From positions 26,133-90,132 of the forward strand of contig CAZRIY010000002.1 in assembly GCA_964600295.1 (NCBI GenBank): a stretch of 64,000 nucleotides of DNA. The letters run 5' to 3'. The notes under the pieces are model-generated. The model had not been told where the DNA came from and did not search any database. It worked only from the letters and a program-made list of their open reading frames with translations. This DNA is from an uncultured Candidatus Saccharibacteria bacterium. Lineage in GTDB: Bacteria > Patescibacteriota > Saccharimonadia > CAZHVB01. The translations under genes and the position numbers were made by a program. Shown piece by piece: positions 51,643-58,239 of this stretch (position 1 is the first letter of the stretch; each line of letters begins with the position of its first letter).

Positions 51643-51648
51643 TCGGCG

Positions 51649-51668
51649 CCTGCCTGCCGGCAGGCAGG
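51649..51668. repeat. perfect 20-nt palindrome CCTGCCTGCCGGCAGGCAGG directly after the rpsJ stop
   Basis: Self-complementary over its full length; same family as the copies in nusA, rpoB and rplV. Confidence 0.7.
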
Positions 51669-51691
51669 TCGACACCGAAATCAAGATGTAG
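51668..51691 (+). repeat. second copy of the rpsJ 3' end (gtc gac acc gaa atc aag atg tag = VDTEIKM-stop)
   Basis: Differs from copy 1 (gtg gat act gaa att aaa atg taa, 51619-51642) only at synonymous positions. Confidence 0.65.
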
Positions 51692-51868
51692 ATGAAAAGA
51701 CTACCGAAGATGCTTAATCATCCGGTACCTATTTTATTAACATTAGGTGGGTTATTTATTGTAGCCTCGATCTTTATGGGCGAATTTTTTGTGATACCCG
51801 GGATTATTCTAATGATAATCGGAGTGTGGTACTGGAAGGGAACGGTTTGGCCATTCTCGGACAAATAA
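51692..51868 (+). CDS. small membrane protein, 58 aa (MKRLPKMLNHPVPILLTLGGLFIVASIFMGEFFVIPGIILMIIGVWYWKGTVWPFSDK)
   Basis: ORF bracketed by repeat copies 2 and 3, with two hydrophobic helices; it is below the ORF-track size cutoff. Confidence 0.4.
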   Translation: MKRLPKMLNHPVPILLTLGGLFIVASIFMGEFFVIPGIILMIIGVWYWKGTVWPFSDK

Positions 51869-51870
51869 TT

Positions 51871-51891
51871 GAAACCGAAATTAAGATGTAA
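51871..51891 (+). repeat. third copy of the rpsJ 3' end (gaa acc gaa att aag atg taa = ETEIKM-stop)
   Basis: Imperfect direct repeat of copies 1 and 2. Confidence 0.6.
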
Positions 51892-51904
51892 TTCTGATAG
51901 TTTC

Positions 51905-52441
51905 ATGGAACCCCAAGCCATCTCTAACAGCGAGCCATTGCCTATCGATGCGGTTACTGAGCTTCGATCTCAAATAGACGACCTCTTAATTGATATGAGA
52001 GAGTCTATAGAGGAGGTGGGGGAGCATCAGTATACCCATATATTAAAGACTTTTATGTCTGGAGCCAGAGAAATTATCATTGAAAAAAGTAAAACCGATG
52101 AGGACCCAGACTTCTTACGTTCGGTTGGCATCCGAGAGTTCATTAAGGATCCAAGTGGCCAGAAAGCGGTGCTAAGGACAGTCTATTATCTTTGGACAAA
52201 TCTGGATATAACTAAGGAATACCACATAGCGGATAATCGTGGACCATGGGAATTGAGCGAGCCGTTCAAAAAATTCTTAAGGATACTTAATGGAAGTGAT
52301 GAAGAGCTAAACCCGGCTGAGGAAGAGGAGATGTTGCGGATAGGAGGAGGTGGTGAATTGCGCGAATTCGCTAGAGACGCAGAAACCGTTTCAGGTGAAG
52401 AATTGACCCAAGTTAAAAAATTATTGGCTAACCTTAGCTAA
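51905..52441 (+). CDS. hypothetical acidic protein, 178 aa
   Basis: AT-rich ORF; start placed at MEPQ because the track's start lies inside repeat copy 3. Confidence 0.5.
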   Translation: MEPQAISNSEPLPIDAVTELRSQIDDLLIDMRESIEEVGEHQYTHILKTFMSGAREIIIEKSKTDEDPDFLRSVGIREFIKDPSGQKAVLRTVYYLWTNLDITKEYHIADNRGPWELSEPFKKFLRILNGSDEELNPAEEEEMLRIGGGGELREFARDAETVSGEELTQVKKLLANLS

Positions 52442-52450
52442 AAAAAACCG

Positions 52451-52466
52451 GGTAGCCAGGGCTACC
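52451..52466. terminator. hairpin ggtagcc-agg-gctacc with an A8 run upstream (reads as a T-run terminator on the minus strand)
   Basis: 6-bp GC stem; orientation ambiguous. Confidence 0.3.
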
Positions 52467-52470
52467 AAAA

Positions 52471-52499
52471 TTGCTAACACCAGCTATATATTATATAAT
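52471..52499 (+). promoter_or_regulatory. near-consensus sigma70 promoter TTGCTA-N17-TATAAT abutting the ATG at 52500 (possible leaderless transcript)
   Basis: Exact -10 consensus hexamer and 17-nt spacer. Confidence 0.4.
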
Positions 52500-52943
52500 A
52501 TGGTTATGGTTGGAGATACACCCGGTGCTCAGATTGAATCGAGAGTACATGATTTATTGGCTGAAATTAAAACGTCCGTCAAACGTCTTTTAGTAGCTGA
52601 GCGGATCCATTATAACGTTGAGGGTGAAGTCTATACTAAGTTTCGCGACTTCGACTCAGATACTAGCTCCTTGCGGGTTCAAGAGATGTCTTCCGATAGC
52701 AATATGAAAGATCCAGAATTTAATATCCATCTTTTTATATTCGACGAACTGCCTGCAAGCTCTGGAGATTACACTGCCTTGGATTTTAATCTATCATCTT
52801 CTAGATCGGTAACCGAAATTAGTGGCGTAAAGGACGGTCGCCATTATCAATATCCCGGTCGCGTATCTGATGCATCCGACCTTTCCGAATTAGCTGATTT
52901 GCTAAAGGACGCGCCCGCCCGGCAGACTACAGCTGATGTATAA
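52500..52943 (+). CDS. hypothetical acidic protein, 147 aa
   Basis: ORF immediately after the promoter-like element; weak N-terminal similarity to the 178-aa neighbour. Confidence 0.45.
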   Translation: MVMVGDTPGAQIESRVHDLLAEIKTSVKRLLVAERIHYNVEGEVYTKFRDFDSDTSSLRVQEMSSDSNMKDPEFNIHLFIFDELPASSGDYTALDFNLSSSRSVTEISGVKDGRHYQYPGRVSDASDLSELADLLKDAPARQTTADV

Positions 52944-52988
52944 AGAAAGCGCCCCGAGTCGGTTGTTGATTGACCCGGGGCGCTAACC

Positions 52989-53291
52989 CTAGAAGTTGTA
53001 GTTCGGCAATCGCCAGAGCTTGAGCCACGTGCTCATGATGACAAGTAGCCCGATCAGCATAATGACATCTCGACCACTGGCGAGAGGGAGATGGCGAGCT
53101 ATTGCCAGTGTGATGGCAATTATCTCCATCTCGATAACGATAGCGACGAGGGCCATCCATCCACGTGAACCCACTGGCTCACTATTGCCACCAGAATCAC
53201 CATAGAAGAATTCCTGGGGTGGTGGGGGAGGATCGTCGTAATGTTTAACGATCTCGTCGAAACTCTTATTTACATCAATGCTGTGGAGCAT
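52989..53291 (-). CDS. small membrane protein (100 aa; polyproline N-terminus, two transmembrane helices)
   Basis: Perfect AAGGAGGTGA Shine-Dalgarno 5 nt upstream on the minus strand, overlapping the stop of the upstream minus-strand gene. Confidence 0.55.
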   Translation of the reverse strand: MLHSIDVNKSFDEIVKHYDDPPPPPQEFFYGDSGGNSEPVGSRGWMALVAIVIEMEIIAITLAIARHLPLASGRDVIMLIGLLVIMSTWLKLWRLPNYNF

Positions 53292-53295
53292 TGGC

Positions 53296-53529
53296 TCACC
53301 TCCTTGGCCATATCAGCCAGACGACGATGATGGTGAAGGGCATCAGAAACAACAGGCTGACGATCAACCCCAACCCGCCATATCTATCTGGTTTGATGGC
53401 TGGCGCGATGGCAAAGATGAGCCAGATCGCCGCCAGCAGAAAAACGGTGAAGATCTTGACTGTATCGTCCGAGTTCATTGCTCGATCTTCTTCGTTGCTG
53501 AGAGGACGAAAGCCCAAAAACCACGGCAT
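53296..53529 (-). CDS. small membrane protein (77 aa, two transmembrane helices)
   Basis: Start placed at MPWF because AGGAGGTG lies upstream of it; the track's longer start is less likely. Confidence 0.5.
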   Translation of the reverse strand: MPWFLGFRPLSNEEDRAMNSDDTVKIFTVFLLAAIWLIFAIAPAIKPDRYGGLGLIVSLLFLMPFTIIVVWLIWPRR

Positions 53530-53655
53530 TTTGCACCTCCTAAGGTTCGGGTCTTCAACCACAGTGGCCGAAAACTATATCTAAGCCATATCATCAAAAA
53601 TAAATCCATGCAAGCAATATGGCAATCGGATATGGGGTGTGGTTAAATCAAGGAT

Positions 53656-53919
53656 ATGGCTAGATCAAAACAAAAAGTGGAACCAGATTCAGTCTATTTC
53701 TTAAAAATTTTACTGTTTTTCATCGTCGGTGCTCTCTGGCTGCGGCAGGATTTTGATGTACTACCTGGAATTAGCGCCTTACCGGTTGGCCTGGTTATCG
53801 GGCTGCTGTTTGCCAGGCATGAACATTTCATGATCGATCGCAAAATCGAATACTTGGTACTACTATCGGCCGCACTGCTGAGCTATTTGGCACCAATCGG
53901 CATCGTAATCGAAATCTAA
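53656..53919 (+). CDS. small membrane protein (87 aa, ~3 transmembrane helices)
   Basis: Hydrophobic ORF whose TAA overlaps the ATG of the downstream metalloprotease gene (TAATG). Confidence 0.5.
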   Translation: MARSKQKVEPDSVYFLKILLFFIVGALWLRQDFDVLPGISALPVGLVIGLLFARHEHFMIDRKIEYLVLLSAALLSYLAPIGIVIEI

Positions 53920-55664
53920 TGCGCCAATTTTTACGCAGAGTGAGGTGGTGGCGCAAAGACGCTCCGCGCCAGTTTTGGCTGGTAGTCGGGCTACTAATAT
54001 TGACTAGTGGCACAGTGGTTGCCCAAACTTTCCCAGTTAAACGTCAGCTGGTCTATGAGCCATGCCAAGCTAACTATGGTGAAACCGTTGGCGGTTGGGA
54101 CGGTGATGGTGATCAGGTTTGGAACGAACGCAACTTTCACTATGAAGTGCGCCGCTTCCGAATTGAAGCCGCTGCTCCTATCGGTTGGTTCCATAATGTT
54201 CAGGAGCAACCGCCTAGCCGATTGTCTACCGTCGATTGCCAACCAGAATTACAGGGTTTTGTTGACACTAATCATGACTCCTATCAATGGTTTGGCGCCC
54301 GCACCTCCGCTATTCGCTTGGGCATGCCGGACTTAGGAGAACTTAACCAGGGTGGTCGTATCAAAATCGATCAGCCCAGAACCAAACCGGATGATGCCGT
54401 TTCGCCGCCGATTTTTGGTGATAGCCACGGCCGGGCCGCGGCTTGGGTGGACGACGGCGCCCAGGCCAATCTAGTGACTACCGACAAGGGTCAGCAGCTG
54501 TTATGGTGCCAGGGCAACAACCAGCCGCTCAATCCCGATCAATCCTGCAACGATGTAGCCGATATTGGCGGCAAGTCGGTGAGGGGAGTAGGCTACTTAT
54601 TCGTTGAAGATAATTGCCCAAAGGCGGGCGGCGTTAACTGTGACCAAGCCACTGCCTGGTATAGACGCCAAAACCTCGATTACAGCCAGCTTATTGGCAG
54701 CAACCAGCGGGGCGAGCTTAATCCTTTTTACTTGCAGCTAGATGCGGTTTCAACCTACGCTAACCGGGTTGGAGCCTGGATGGTACTGACATTTAAATAC
54801 CCCAAGCTATCCAACATCAGCAATCAAGTCAGCCTAGATAAACAGACCTATCAGGTGGGCGAAACTATCACAGCCACCGCCGGTTTTTCCAAAATTGGTC
54901 CTACTGTTACCAACCTTAGTATCAATCCAGATCTCAGTAACCAGCCATTGCAAATTATTGCCAATTTTGAAACTTCCACCGGCAACTTGGAGGACATTAA
55001 TAAAGGAAAAGAAGCTGAAGCAGCCGCCAAGTTTAAGATCACTGATGCTGCCCAGCCCGGCCAGTGTTACAACCTAACCTTTAACTTTCAAGCGGAGAGC
55101 ATTTTGGAGGTTGATGGCAGCAGAGAGGTTAAACTGGCGCCGCTGGCTAGCCGTTACTGCATTGCCGCCCCTGCCAGCGCTACTTATACCTACAGTGTAA
55201 CCACCCGCGGCAATGTGCAAAGTGATGTCAATGAATTTGCCGATTTGGCAGCCGAAACACTAGCTTCGGTGTCGGGTTGGTCACAAGCTGGGGCTGGTTT
55301 TAGCCGAGTAAATAGCGGCGGGGATTTTACTTTGGTGCTGGCGGCGCCGGATCAAATGACATCATTTTCTAGCGGCTGCGATGCTACCTATAGTTGTCAG
55401 GCTGGTGGCTTTGTAATTATCAACGATGAACGCTGGCGAACAGCTACGCCGTCATGGAATAATAACGCCGGTAGCCTGCGTGATTATCGCCACATGGTGA
55501 TTAATCATGAGACTGGTCATTGGCTGGGCTTTGGCCACCTCAACTGCTCGGCCCCCGGCGCGGCGGCGCCAGTAATGCAGCAACAATCGATCAGCCTGCA
55601 GGGCTGCGCTCACAATCCTTGGCCGACGCCGGCCGAAATCCAGACTTTAAAAAGCCGTCTCTAG
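53919..55664 (+). CDS. secreted/membrane-anchored metzincin-like zinc metalloprotease (HExxHxxGxxH), 581 aa
   Basis: N-terminal signal anchor (FWLVVGLLILTSGTVVAQ) and a C-terminal HETGHWLGFGH motif followed by Cys/Met residues. The large middle region is uncharacterized. Confidence 0.6.
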   Translation: MRQFLRRVRWWRKDAPRQFWLVVGLLILTSGTVVAQTFPVKRQLVYEPCQANYGETVGGWDGDGDQVWNERNFHYEVRRFRIEAAAPIGWFHNVQEQPPSRLSTVDCQPELQGFVDTNHDSYQWFGARTSAIRLGMPDLGELNQGGRIKIDQPRTKPDDAVSPPIFGDSHGRAAAWVDDGAQANLVTTDKGQQLLWCQGNNQPLNPDQSCNDVADIGGKSVRGVGYLFVEDNCPKAGGVNCDQATAWYRRQNLDYSQLIGSNQRGELNPFYLQLDAVSTYANRVGAWMVLTFKYPKLSNISNQVSLDKQTYQVGETITATAGFSKIGPTVTNLSINPDLSNQPLQIIANFETSTGNLEDINKGKEAEAAAKFKITDAAQPGQCYNLTFNFQAESILEVDGSREVKLAPLASRYCIAAPASATYTYSVTTRGNVQSDVNEFADLAAETLASVSGWSQAGAGFSRVNSGGDFTLVLAAPDQMTSFSSGCDATYSCQAGGFVIINDERWRTATPSWNNNAGSLRDYRHMVINHETGHWLGFGHLNCSAPGAAAPVMQQQSISLQGCAHNPWPTPAEIQTLKSRL

Positions 55665-55681
55665 CTAGATTCGACCTCTGG

Positions 55682-55710
55682 TTGACAGAGGTAACTAAGA
55701 TTGGTAGCAT
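55682..55710 (+). promoter_or_regulatory. sigma70-like promoter upstream of rplC (TTGACA-N17-TAGCAT), with the -35 inside palindrome CCTCTGgttgaCAGAGG
   Basis: Hexamers and spacing; the palindrome spans 55675-55691. Confidence 0.4.
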
Positions 55711-55808
55711 TAGACGGTATCGCTTTTACTGCTTAACAGTGGTGAAATGATTGGCTGCGGAGCGCCATATAGTTATTTCGCGGTCTAAATTTATTTAAAG
55801 GCGGAGAC

Positions 55809-56441
55809 ATGAAAGCTTTAATTGGTCGTAAATTGGGCATGACCCAGATTTTTGGTGAGCGTGGTAAAACCCAGGCGGTTACACTGCTCCAAGCCGGTCC
55901 TTGCGTGGTTACGCAAGTCAAAACTGCTGAGAAGGACGGTTATAACGCTATTCAGCTGGGTTTTGGCGAAGCCAAGCAACTTTCCAAACCGGCAACGGGA
56001 CATCTGAAGGGGAGTAAATCTAAAGCCCGCTATTTGCGCGAATTCCGGCTTGAGCCCGCAGACGATAAAACAGCTGCCGAAACTGCACTCAAGGTTGGAG
56101 ATAAGCTGGAAGTTTCGCAGTTTAAAGCTGGCGACGAAGTCACAATAGTAGCCATCAGCAAGGGCAAGGGCTTCGCTGGTACCATCAAGCGTTATAATTT
56201 TTCCCGCGGTCCCAAAACCCATGGCTCAATGAGTTATCGGCGGCCCGGCTCAATCGGCTCAATGTACCCCCAGAAAGTTTTCAAGGGTAAGAAAATGGCT
56301 GGTCGGATGGGTTATGACCGGGTGACACTAAAGAAAATGAAGATCGCCGAAGTTAAGTCTGAGGAGCGACTTTTGGCCGTAGCCGGACCTATTCCTGGTC
56401 CGCGCAAGGGTTTGGTATTGATAGCGGGCAGCAATGGTTAA
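55809..56441 (+). CDS. rplC: 50S ribosomal protein L3
   Basis: MKALIGRKLGMTQIFGERG N-terminus. Confidence 0.95.
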   Translation: MKALIGRKLGMTQIFGERGKTQAVTLLQAGPCVVTQVKTAEKDGYNAIQLGFGEAKQLSKPATGHLKGSKSKARYLREFRLEPADDKTAAETALKVGDKLEVSQFKAGDEVTIVAISKGKGFAGTIKRYNFSRGPKTHGSMSYRRPGSIGSMYPQKVFKGKKMAGRMGYDRVTLKKMKIAEVKSEERLLAVAGPIPGPRKGLVLIAGSNG

Positions 56442-57105
56442 AGCGGCTGCCTACACCAGCAGCGGAGCTAAAGCTTCCCAGGCTGTTAATCTGCCCGAAG
56501 CGGTCTTTGGTGAGGAAGTCAGCAATCACCAGTTACTGCATGAAGCGATTCGGGCTTATCAGGCCGAATTGCGCCGAGTAAGCGCTAAGACCAAAACCCG
56601 AGGACAGGTCCGAGGTGGGGGTAGAAAACCCTGGAAGCAGAAGGGTCTGGGCAAAGCTCGGGCCGGCTCAATCCGATCACCAATTTGGAAGGGCGGCGGT
56701 GTGACATTTGGGCCGACGGGTGAACAAAATTATCGAATCAACCTGCCCAAAGCAGCTCGTAGGCTGGCTTTGCGCCAAGCTCTCAGCCTCAAAGCCCAGG
56801 CTGGTGCCATCCTGGTAATTGATAGCTTAGAATCTAATGCCGGCAAAACCAAAGACATAATGCAACTGCTGGAAAAGCTAGGGGTCGCCAGAAAAACCCT
56901 GCTAGTGGTTGATAAACCCACTCCACAATTAACCAGATCGACCAATAATCTGACAGGTGTTAGCCTGACCAGTGCCCGCTACCTCAACCCCTATCGGGTA
57001 TTAGACGCCGATCAGCTAGTTATCACAAAACCGGTGCTGAGTGTTATCAAAGATTGGCTGGGTCAAGAGTCGGCTGCCAAAGATACTGAGGCCAGCCGTG
57101 GATAG
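56434..57105 (+). CDS. rplD: 50S ribosomal protein L4
   Basis: Its start overlaps the rplC stop; L4 motifs (GGGRKPWKQKGLGKARAGS). Confidence 0.93.
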   Translation: MVKAAAYTSSGAKASQAVNLPEAVFGEEVSNHQLLHEAIRAYQAELRRVSAKTKTRGQVRGGGRKPWKQKGLGKARAGSIRSPIWKGGGVTFGPTGEQNYRINLPKAARRLALRQALSLKAQAGAILVIDSLESNAGKTKDIMQLLEKLGVARKTLLVVDKPTPQLTRSTNNLTGVSLTSARYLNPYRVLDADQLVITKPVLSVIKDWLGQESAAKDTEASRG

Positions 57106-57409
57106 TTTATTGGCGTTGCCGGTGATTAGCGAAAAAGCCATGGCCATTGTGGCAGCTAATAATTGCTATGCCTTTTTGGTGCCCAAGTCAGCGGGTAAAA
57201 CTGCCATTGCGCGGGCCGTAGCTACCAAGTTTGGGGTCAAGGTCACCAGAGTTAATACCACAATTATTAAGGGTAAGCCCAAGCAAATGTCGGTGCAGCG
57301 TGGCCGCCGTCGATTGAGCGGCAGCCGCTCGGACTTTAAGAAGGCCTATGTAGTCCTAGCCAAGGGAGAAACCATCAAATTATTCGAAGACAAGGGCGAG
57401 AAAAAATAA
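57099..57409 (+). CDS. rplW: 50S ribosomal protein L23
   Basis: GTG start after a GAGG Shine-Dalgarno; LPVISEKAM... L23 core. The track's ATG at 57041 would overlap rplD by 65 nt. Confidence 0.85.
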
Positions 57410-58239
57410 TGGCTACACGAGTCTATCGCCCCACCACACCAGCCCGTCGTGGCATGAGCAGCCGCGATACCGCGGTGCTGACAGTCAAAAAGCCAGTAAA
57501 ATCACTGGTCAGAGCTGGCGGGGTTTCTAAGGGACGTAATGATGTAGGGAAGATCACCGTCCGTCACCGCGGCGGCGGGGTCAAACGTCGCTATCGTCTA
57601 GTCGATTTTAAAAGTAAGGTTGATTCTGAGGGCACGGTAAAAACCATAGAATATGATCCCAATCGCTCTGCTCACATTGCCCTAGTAGAAGACAGCGATG
57701 GTGAATTGTCTTATATTTTGGCCGAAGCCAAGATGAAAGTCGGCCAAAAACTTAGAGTCAGCGCTGAAGCCCCCATAAAAAGTGCCAATCGTTTACCGCT
57801 GTCTGCCATTCCAACGGGTAGTTCAATATATAATATCGAGCTTGAACCGGGTAGGGGCGGGCAGTTGGCTAGAAGTGCTGGAGCCTCGGCGACGCTTGCC
57901 GCCAAAGACGAACAATATGCTCAGGTCAGGTTACCCAGCGGCGAAATCAGGCTAATTAATCTGGGGTGTTACGCCACCCTGGGGGCGGTCGGCAATGAAG
58001 CCCACCAACACATTAAATGGGGCAGCGCAGGCCGCCGACGTCGGCTGGGTTGGCGTCCATCGGTCCGGGGGAAGGCTATGAACCCGTCAGATCATCACAT
58101 GGGTGGGGGCGAGGGTAAGTCTGGTCCGGGCAGACACCCCACCACGCCGTGGGGTAAACCAGCAATCGGTGCCAAAACCCGCCGCCGCAAGCGAACCCAG
58201 AAAATGATAGTTCGCTCTCGTAGCAAGGGTAGGAGATAA
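57409..58239 (+). CDS. rplB: 50S ribosomal protein L2
   Basis: 276 aa with L2 motifs. Confidence 0.96.

Follow-up and report, generated by a model that had tools for sequence, protein, structure and literature searches.

In Escherichia coli, the S10 operon carries an L4-responsive leader/attenuator upstream of rpsJ, the gene for ribosomal protein S10 (PMC3616713). Archaeal uS10 comes after EF-1alpha and stands apart from uL3-uL4-uL23 (PMC10833476), and for Gammaproteobacteria, multigene insertions between concatenated translation operons (str-S10-spc-alpha) have been described (PMC6735719, PMC8046335). Here we analyze the segment that separates rpsJ from rplC, the gene for ribosomal protein L3, in an uncultured Candidatus Saccharibacteria bacterium (assembly GCA_964600295.1, contig CAZRIY010000002.1, positions 26,133 to 90,132 of the forward strand). 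This whole stretch of 64,000 nucleotides is referred to as the window, and coordinates are positions within it. A first-pass annotation had described the segment as an accessory island splitting the S10 operon. Our results indicate that it is most probably the local filling of a gene slot that lies between two operons and varies throughout the phylum, and not a discrete mobile island. What looks like an anomaly against textbook bacteria is the normal state for Saccharibacteria.

The slot is delimited by two conserved genes:

51274-51642, plus strand: rpsJ, ribosomal protein S10, 122 aa (Pfam Ribosomal_S10, E=3.6e-38), the left conserved flank of the slot.
55809-56441, plus strand: rplC, ribosomal protein L3 (Pfam Ribosomal_L3), the right conserved flank.

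Both genes are on the plus strand and are 4166 bp apart (51643-55808). The 4.2-kb segment seen in the first-pass annotation is therefore real, all open reading frames (ORFs) listed for it are present, and, as had been claimed, no housekeeping translation gene was found in it. On the left, an 8-nt spacer separates the stop of tuf at 51265 from the start of rpsJ at 51274; on the right, rplC is the first gene of a tightly packed block that extends to rplP. An independent Logan assembly (L081, run SRR6868922) agrees letter for letter with positions 51470-57941 of the window, which rules out mis-assembly or a chimera as the source of this arrangement.

We compared the locus with a survey sample of 80 species-level loci around rpsJ and five loci around DUF3152 homologs, 85 loci altogether. 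Across 75 Saccharibacteria loci, the gap between rpsJ and rplC has a median of 1426 bp (range 48-7641); it is wider than 300 bp in 92% of cases and wider than 1 kb in 63%. The conserved adjacency of the two genes, from which the first-pass annotation had argued, consequently fails as a premise for this phylum. The two genes are classically adjacent, about 50 bp apart (48-55 bp by two estimates), in L077, which is labelled Clostridia and is the sole locus from outside Saccharibacteria that was retrieved. Each of the seven junctions from rplC to rplP has a median of 52 bp or less, with gaps above 300 bp in 0-9% of loci. Upstream of rpsJ, the median gaps are 366 bp between rpsG and fusA, 616 bp between fusA and tuf and 406 bp between tuf and rpsJ, and they exceed 300 bp in 63%, 67% and 56% of loci, respectively.

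A canonical intrinsic terminator is present within 120 nt past the rpsJ stop in 39 of 84 loci. On the other side of the gap, 55 of 74 loci have a promoter of the form TTGAC[AT]-N16-18-TAnnnT at a distance of 115-198 nt before rplC, while the same pattern upstream of rplD, rplB, rpsC, rplP, tuf and fusA, which served as controls, gave 0-1 matches. Because a terminator after rpsJ is common and rplC has its own promoter, the junction is, in its layout, a boundary between two transcription units, and presumably it is one in function. The proposed position inside the S10 operon does not hold, since the segment sits at this boundary, with a conserved promoter (and, in relatives, a leader) before rplC. 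The right border in the window is formed by two features:

55682-55710, plus strand: promoter-like site TTGACA-17-TAGCAT, whose -10 is extended by a TG.
Up to 55808, plus strand: rplC leader of about 98 nt, then the Shine-Dalgarno sequence GGCGGAG.

Between the promoter and rplC, most relatives have a conserved RNA, CTTGGT…AGGTCT…TAACAGAGGTAGAAACC…ACCAAG-TTTTT. Its long closing stem, in which 10 of the 14 pairs show compensatory double changes, leads into a U-run. A covariance model of this leader produced 58 matches at E<0.01, one per locus and all directly upstream of rplC; 20 of them are outside the seed alignment, and there were none elsewhere in 1.4 Mb. Examples are L056:11294-11381, L033:10368-10456 and L044:14606-14693, with the promoter TTGACA-N18-TAATCT upstream. 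No Rfam family matched the rplC leader. We consider the leader of the relatives a candidate new ribosomal-protein leader of a probably attenuator-like type. The conserved model (R1) has no match in the window at E<=1, and the leader of the nearest relatives is likewise unmatched; the window may contain a clade-specific variant. The window leader (55740-55775) and that of L001 (6400-6440) share the block GGCTGCG(G/A)(A/G)GCGCC, and a TAACAG(N)GG motif is common to the window leader and the conserved leader.

At the sequence level, the window departs from the E. coli type of S10 operon on two counts: rpsJ and rplC are not contiguous, and a predicted promoter lies between them. The segment is outside an operon of that type. 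As in E. coli, the order from rplC to rplP is the same and the genes are tightly packed, and most Saccharibacteria have a structured leader ending in a terminator-like hairpin and U-run before the first gene of the block. Unlike in E. coli, this leader and its promoter precede rplC rather than rpsJ and have no sequence or Rfam similarity to their counterparts; the window's own leader falls outside the conserved model, and a role for L4 would be by analogy. The window does conform to the archaeal type, with the S10 gene directly after tuf and detached from L3-L4-L23. In the archaeal str/L30e cluster (…S12-S7-(fusA)-EF1alpha-S10), just as in the window, S10 directly follows the EF-Tu/EF-1alpha gene and is uncoupled from the L3-led block. 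Unlike in Archaea, Saccharibacteria keep the L3 block on the same strand, 0.1-7.6 kb further on, the intervening DNA is a variable slot, and the tuf-rpsJ junction is itself open in 56% of loci. The str operon of cyanobacteria and plastids similarly ends in tufA-rps10. The likeness to Gammaproteobacteria is that lineage-specific genes gather at operon boundaries and leave the interiors intact; the difference is that the boundary in Saccharibacteria is one gene further in (rpsJ/rplC), is occupied in 92% of the phylum's loci and has a recurrent resident, the small membrane protein i87 described below.

The content of the slot is hypervariable and consists mostly of ordinary chromosomal genes. When the 122 gap ORFs with 100 aa or more were clustered, 73 of the 89 clusters had a single member; 78% of these ORFs are co-oriented with the operon. 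According to Pfam, the most frequent annotated occupants are NUDIX hydrolases (clusters c2 and c4, 12 loci), and other slot genes encode CTP synthase, adenosine deaminase, glutamate dehydrogenase, an ABC-F ATPase and a methyltransferase. Genes for envelope and peptidoglycan functions recur in the slot of different species (L001, L020, L084 and others), with Pfam matches to VanY, S11 D-Ala-D-Ala carboxypeptidase, YkuD L,D-transpeptidase, PGA_cap, beta-lactamase-like and lysyl-PG synthase domains. No integrase or mobility genes were found among the scanned gap genes of the relatives. The site is almost never empty in existing relatives. The first-pass annotation had reasoned that the same gene content at this junction in most relatives, or a composition uniform with the flanks, would argue against an insertion; the same content is not common to most relatives, and the left part of the segment deviates in composition, as described below.

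The right half of the window's slot contains its most widely conserved gene and a protease gene that overlaps it:

53597-53655, both strands: divergent promoter region, with a minus-strand TTGCCA-17-TATTTT (53625 to 53597) and a plus-strand extended -10 for i87.
53656-53919, plus strand: i87, a membrane protein of 87 aa that recurs as a resident of the rpsJ-rplC slot.
53919-55664, plus strand: i581, 581 aa, with an N-terminal transmembrane (TM) anchor, then a Cys-rich beta-sandwich region, and at the C-terminus a DUF3152 metzincin-like domain.

The i87 family has 150 homologs of 80-100 aa; it is Saccharibacteria-wide and unannotated, and none of its members has a Pfam domain. A homolog is located within the rpsJ-rplC gap in 39 of 74 loci, on the plus strand every time and as the last gene before rplC in 20 of the 39, and never elsewhere in the ±10-kb loci. 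Upstream of the family's genes, matches to TATAAT peak at offset -13 (mean 3.54 of 6 vs about 2 at other offsets). The extended -10 (TGnTAtAAT, with the TG present in 44%) ends exactly 7 nt before the ATG, and a Shine-Dalgarno sequence is usually absent (promoter examples are L010:687, L048:10390 and L030:10830). Such a layout is the signature predicted for a leaderless mRNA. In the window, i87 has the extended -10 TGgTTAAAT (53640-53648) followed by seven nucleotides and the ATG, and an AAGGA is also present 3 nt before the ATG. The AlphaFold model of i87 (pLDDT 83) consists of three helices, and nothing significant was found in the PDB by sequence or fold.

DUF3152 (PF11350) proteins are known from Actinomycetota, for example M. 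tuberculosis Rv3207c (PMC3726780). Residues 421-561 of i581 match this family with 84.2 bits (cut-off 25.1, E=1.3e-23) and include the zinc motif HETGHWLGFGH (HExxHxxGxxH). The family of i581 has about 11 full-length members, which are 36-52% identical; H530, E531, H534, G537, H540 and M553, together with 11 Cys residues, are invariant in 11 members. The structural model has a pLDDT of 79, with 52-88, only moderately confident, in the catalytic region. Foldseek matched the C-terminal domain to the catalytic domains of MMP-12 and MMP-13 with a probability of 1.0 and a target TM-score of 0.49-0.55; the whole-length search returned weak beta-sandwich matches only, leaving the MMP-like match of the C-terminal domain as the meaningful one. 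By motif, methionine (Met-turn) and modeled fold, i581 is a predicted membrane-anchored metzincin-like Zn-protease. It resembles DUF3152 proteins and MMP metzincins in its score, HExxHxxGxxH motif, conserved Met and superposition on MMP-12/MMP-13; unlike in other DUF3152 proteins, its N-terminal ~420 residues are confined to a small clade, about 11 proteins, of Saccharibacteria. In the searched literature, where one paper mentions DUF3152, no biochemical data on any member were found.

Translational coupling of i581 to i87 is predicted because the ATG of i581 overlaps the stop of i87 (TAATG). An i87-like gene and a DUF3152 gene are paired directly before rplC in all five nearest relatives (L039, L082-L085); L085 starts inside the i87-like gene, which was detected there by tblastn only. 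The pair would supply an extracellular zinc protease and a small membrane partner acting on the cell envelope or the host surface. The stretch from rpsJ to i87 differs in each readable relative, where it contains a NUDIX gene (L083), a methyltransferase gene (L084) or a minus-strand ORF (L082). With i87 in 39 of 74 loci and the pair in five relatives, about half of the segment was not inserted; only its left ~2 kb are genome-specific. The closest matches of the DUF3152 domain outside Saccharibacteria (P0012-P0014) are 53-57% identical over about 150 aa, and the one annotated match among them is a protein of Acidimicrobiales (Actinomycetota) that is 53% identical over the protease domain. Cultured Saccharibacteria have Actinomycetota as hosts. 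Since the Acidimicrobiales match belongs to the phylum of these hosts, horizontal transfer of the catalytic domain from a host is possible.

The persistence of i87 at this position across the phylum, always co-oriented, also speaks for regarding the whole segment as an ancient lineage-specific extension of the ribosomal operon that is co-transcribed with it and acts in translation or ribosome biogenesis. The co-orientation of 78% of the gap ORFs and the lack of a canonical terminator after the window's rpsJ fit this explanation as well. We nevertheless regard it as very unlikely. Beyond i87 (and DUF3152 in one clade), the content differs in almost every species and includes unrelated metabolic and cell-wall enzymes. 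As a rule, rpsJ is followed by a terminator and rplC is preceded by a promoter and leader of its own. Moreover, i87 has its own promoter signature, two of the window's genes are encoded on the other strand and carry separate signals, and two further ones, i178 and i145, are without homologs anywhere.

The latter genes belong to the genome-specific left half of the slot (51643 to ~53650), which contains the following features:

51692-51868, plus strand: i58, a 58-codon hydrophobic ORF, placed exactly between two partial copies of the rpsJ end (relics 2 and 3, see below), with its ATG abutting the TAG of the former.
51905-52441, plus strand: i178, an acidic protein of 178 aa, pI 4.6, a strict ORFan in AT-rich DNA.
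52441-52466, minus strand: A-run followed by the hairpin GGTAGCCAGGGCTACC; read on the minus strand, an intrinsic terminator, hairpin then CGGTTTTTTT.
52471-52499, plus strand: promoter-like site TTGCTA-17-TATAAT, 10/12 matches, ending 6 nt before the i145 ATG at 52506.
52506-52943, plus strand: i145, an acidic protein of 145 aa (147 aa from 52500), pI 4.65, a strict ORFan.
52948-52984, minus strand: GC-rich hairpin with 13-nt arms (12/13 complementary), between the convergent i145 and i100m and followed by TTCTTTAT.
52989-53291, minus strand: i100m, a small membrane protein of 100 aa; its Shine-Dalgarno sequence AAGGAGGTG precedes the ATG at 53291 by 5 nt.
53296-53529, minus strand: i77m, a small membrane protein of 77 aa; its Shine-Dalgarno sequence TAGGAGGTG precedes the ATG at 53529 by 4 nt.

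The start of i178 is placed at the ATG at 51905, in agreement with the 178-aa gene call on the Logan contig, while the mechanical ORF from the TTG at 51869 has 190 aa; for i145, the database protein has 145 aa. An exhaustive HMMER search of 1.84 billion representatives with i178 retrieved only itself, and i145 likewise found only itself among 5.8 billion proteins. Their coding scores, 0.243 for i178 (-0.33 for other frames) and 0.226 for i145 (-0.35 for other frames), are within the range of confident genes. From the position of its promoter-like site, i145 is predicted to have a leaderless start. By contrast with these two, i58 has a codon-usage score of -0.015 vs 0.075 for the best other frame and no family matches above threshold, and whether it is a real gene is uncertain. 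On the minus strand, the coding score of i100m is weak (0.093), with no homologs in the 85 loci. The ORF of i77m reaches a GTG at 53562, which gives 88 aa (i88m), and its codon score is also weak; i77m/i88m was considered as an inverted paralog of i87, but against the i87 profile it reaches 8.9 bits only, a level typical of TM-helix bias. Despite the weak codon scores, we treat i77m and i100m as a putatively real two-gene minus-strand unit, divergent from i87, because both have near-perfect Shine-Dalgarno sequences and are followed by the hairpin at 52948-52984, likely the terminator of the pair.

The plus-strand i145 is bracketed by two minus-strand terminators. The one at 52441-52466 has no obvious gene to terminate and could be a leftover of an earlier arrangement. 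Neither PHROGs nor PADLOC gave a match that would trace the ORFans to a phage or a defence system. Even the closest relatives in the sample are far removed (rplC at most 64% and fusA at most 70% identical), so the uniqueness of the left-half genes may partly reflect sparse sampling.

The base composition of the left part, with a GC content of 0.39-0.44, deviates from the window mean of 0.49, and the lowest-GC 600-nt window in the whole 64 kb begins at 51701. The AT-richer DNA noted earlier is limited to this part: values more than 2 SD (standard deviations) below the mean were found only at 51500-52900, and 52950-55800 is like the flanks. Another open junction in the window, 49300-49800, is as AT-rich as 51500-52900, and the codon scores of i178 and i145 are host-like.

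It might be argued that the ORFan part (51643 to ~53600) is non-functional filler, made of decaying gene remnants and recombination scars, with ORFs that are not all expressed. The missing codon-usage support for i58, i100m and i77m and the missing homologs of i178 and i145 are in keeping with such an origin, as are the seemingly superfluous minus-strand terminator at 52441-52466 and the relic gene ends described below, which show that scars persist here. The ORFs are, on the other side, long and uninterrupted; i178 and i145 score like confident genes, far above the other five frames, the 10/12 promoter of i145 is spaced right for a leaderless start, and i77m and i100m combine near-perfect Shine-Dalgarno sequences at the right spacing with a terminator. 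We consider this explanation unlikely.

Three other features of the local gene cluster can be mentioned at this point. The rpsJ product has a ~25-residue N-terminal extension (51274-51350), with the Pfam S10 domain beginning at residue 27; the extension is variable in the phylum, and most relatives align only from residue ~24 on. A small acidic ORF with a good coding score, x136 (46696-47106, pI 4.4), is located between rpsG and fusA, and another, orf156 (49371-49841, pI 5.2), between fusA and tuf in AT-rich DNA (GC ~0.42). Neither x136 nor orf156 has a homolog among the 85 loci. BLASTP revealed no relationship between x136, orf156, i178 and i145, all of them small acidic ORFs at open junctions, and paralogy was rejected.

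The immediate vicinity of rpsJ has possible traces of past exchange, in that its 3' end is present more than once:

51619-51642, plus strand: resident rpsJ 3' end (copy 1), GTGGATACTGAAATTAAAATGTAA, encoding VDTEIKM and the stop.
51649-51668, no strand: perfect 20-nt GC-rich palindrome CCTGCCTGCC/GGCAGGCAGG directly past the rpsJ stop, without a U-run and not a canonical terminator.
51668-51691, plus strand: relic copy 2, GTCGACACCGAAATCAAGATGTAG.
51871-51892, plus strand: relic copy 3, GAAACCGAAATTAAGATGTAAT, encoding ETEIKM and the stop, 13 nt upstream of the i178 ATG.

The att-like repeats reported for the rpsJ side are thus confirmed as copies of the last 21-24 nt of rpsJ, the second and third of which bracket i58 exactly. 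Relic 2 has six differences from the resident end, all synonymous or stop-to-stop, and is identical (24/24) to the functional rpsJ end of the relative L082; relic 3 differs from the resident end by two synonymous changes and one conservative change (D to E). A search of 2.83 Mb of related sequence with the degenerate codon pattern of the rpsJ end gave only 3 extra matches, none of them more than 230 nt past an rpsJ stop. Relics are present in two distant relatives, namely in L080 (7467-7487), where a hairpin comparable to the window's lies between the rpsJ stop and the relic, and in L041 (~60 nt past the rpsJ stop); their differences are again synonymous or stop-to-stop. The restriction of the differences to synonymous sites suggests that both copies evolved as working gene ends, and the relics would be remnants of other rpsJ alleles. 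This pattern fits import or replacement of alleles better than duplication in place followed by neutral decay.

Integrative islands at att sites of the tRNA/tmRNA type insert at a gene's 3' end, which they rebuild from a copy that they bring along. The direct repeats of the upstream gene's 3' end that mark the left border and internal boundaries of the segment are a likeness to such islands, and they raise the question of whether all of the segment, or only the left part, could be a genuine integrative element or an array of cassettes, site-specific for the rpsJ 3' end. Three direct copies of the rpsJ terminus stand in tandem order, the second and third around i58, the relics are alike in length (~21-24 nt), and the adjoining DNA is AT-rich; the succession of resident end, hairpin and relic is also seen in the distant L080, and a relic in L041. 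Several differences make this reading highly improbable, and the same applies to its more specific form, in which each insertion brings a replacement rpsJ end and displaces the old one as tRNA-targeting islands do. Searches against Pfam, NCBIfam, PHROGs and PADLOC identified no integrase, recombinase or transposase in the seven ORFs of the segment, nor did the scanned gaps of the relatives contain any. No copy of the rpsJ end is present near the rplC side (55665-55808), so both negatives stated in the first-pass annotation were reproduced. In addition, the repeat-bounded units are tiny (only ~28 and 179 bp), the relics are found in only 3 of ~80 genomes though the slot is occupied in almost all of them, and the i87-i581 half of the segment is vertically conserved. 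Lacking a recombinase and a right-hand repeat, the segment is outside the integrative-island class.

The repeats could also be accommodated if the rpsJ-rplC junction were a dedicated capture site. Recombination at a ~21-24-nt site at the rpsJ end would then bring in a replacement end and leave a relic, without an element-borne integrase; captured genes would be expressed, leaderless, from minimal promoters placed right at their start codons, and i87 would be a fixed resident. We judge this distinctly unlikely.

Local filling of a variable slot can be pictured as follows. In Saccharibacteria, rpsJ travels with tuf, much as S10 accompanies EF-1alpha in Archaea, and rplC heads a presumed operon of its own, equipped with a consensus promoter and, in most lineages, with an attenuator-like structured leader. 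What lies between them would not be constrained by co-transcription; it holds different genes, for the most part ordinary chromosomal ones, in nearly every species. The slot in the window would be a mosaic of independent units, the first a ~250-bp zone beside rpsJ with two relics around the doubtful i58, and the second the two acidic ORFan genes in AT-rich DNA, of which the latter has its own promoter abutting the start codon. The minus-strand pair i77m/i100m with its Shine-Dalgarno sequences and terminator would be the third unit. The fourth would consist of i87 and the DUF3152 protease, with a leaderless mRNA from an extended -10 and translational coupling of the protease, and the fifth of the rplC promoter and leader. 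As the first-pass annotation had noticed, the segment has promoter-like elements of its own, with predicted sites before i145, i87, the minus-strand pair and rplC. With at least three internal units that have their own predicted start signals, its notion of a cargo riding on the operon's expression is not obvious.

Natural competence is known in Saccharibacteria, which integrate linear DNA by way of ~1-kb flanks (PMC10633639). From this competence and the almost exclusively synonymous differences of the relics, we infer that the content of the slot turns over when taken-up DNA recombines, either homologously or in a homology-facilitated illegitimate manner, with the very conserved tuf-rpsJ and rplC-rplD flanks as anchors. 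The relics at the rpsJ end would be footprints of this process, as an illegitimate join may sometimes leave the old gene end behind.

Several observations weigh against this explanation. The promoters, terminators and leaderless starts are consensus predictions from the sequence. The window's rpsJ is without a canonical terminator, as the hairpin at 51649-51668 has no U-run; read-through from tuf-rpsJ into i58 and i178 is therefore possible, in which case the riding idea could hold for the first two ORFs. Relics are present in only 3 of ~80 genomes, and the recombination mechanism alone does not explain their uniform length of ~21-24 nt. Phylogenetic incongruence across the junction was sought and gave no independent signal of recombination, as the same relatives (L082, L084 and L085) are closest on both flanks with the same ranking. 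Finally, the sampled relatives are too distant for the turnover to be dated, and no difference in presence or absence between closely related strains was seen.

The searched literature contained nothing specific on an rpsJ-rplC split, this leader or leaderless genes in Saccharibacteria. Our results correct an assumption of annotation and ribosomal-protein phylogenomics, since in a whole phylum of ultrasmall epibionts S10 does not belong to the L3-led operon. The rpsJ-rplC junction is the most variable point of the local translation cluster (rpoC to rplP), and it provides a simple, alignable marker for gene gain and loss in reduced, naturally competent genomes. The i87 family and the clade-specific surface metzincin, possibly acting at the interface between epibiont and host, are candidates for experiments in genetically tractable strains. 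The covariation-supported rplC leader of the relatives could be the phylum's counterpart of L4-type autoregulation.

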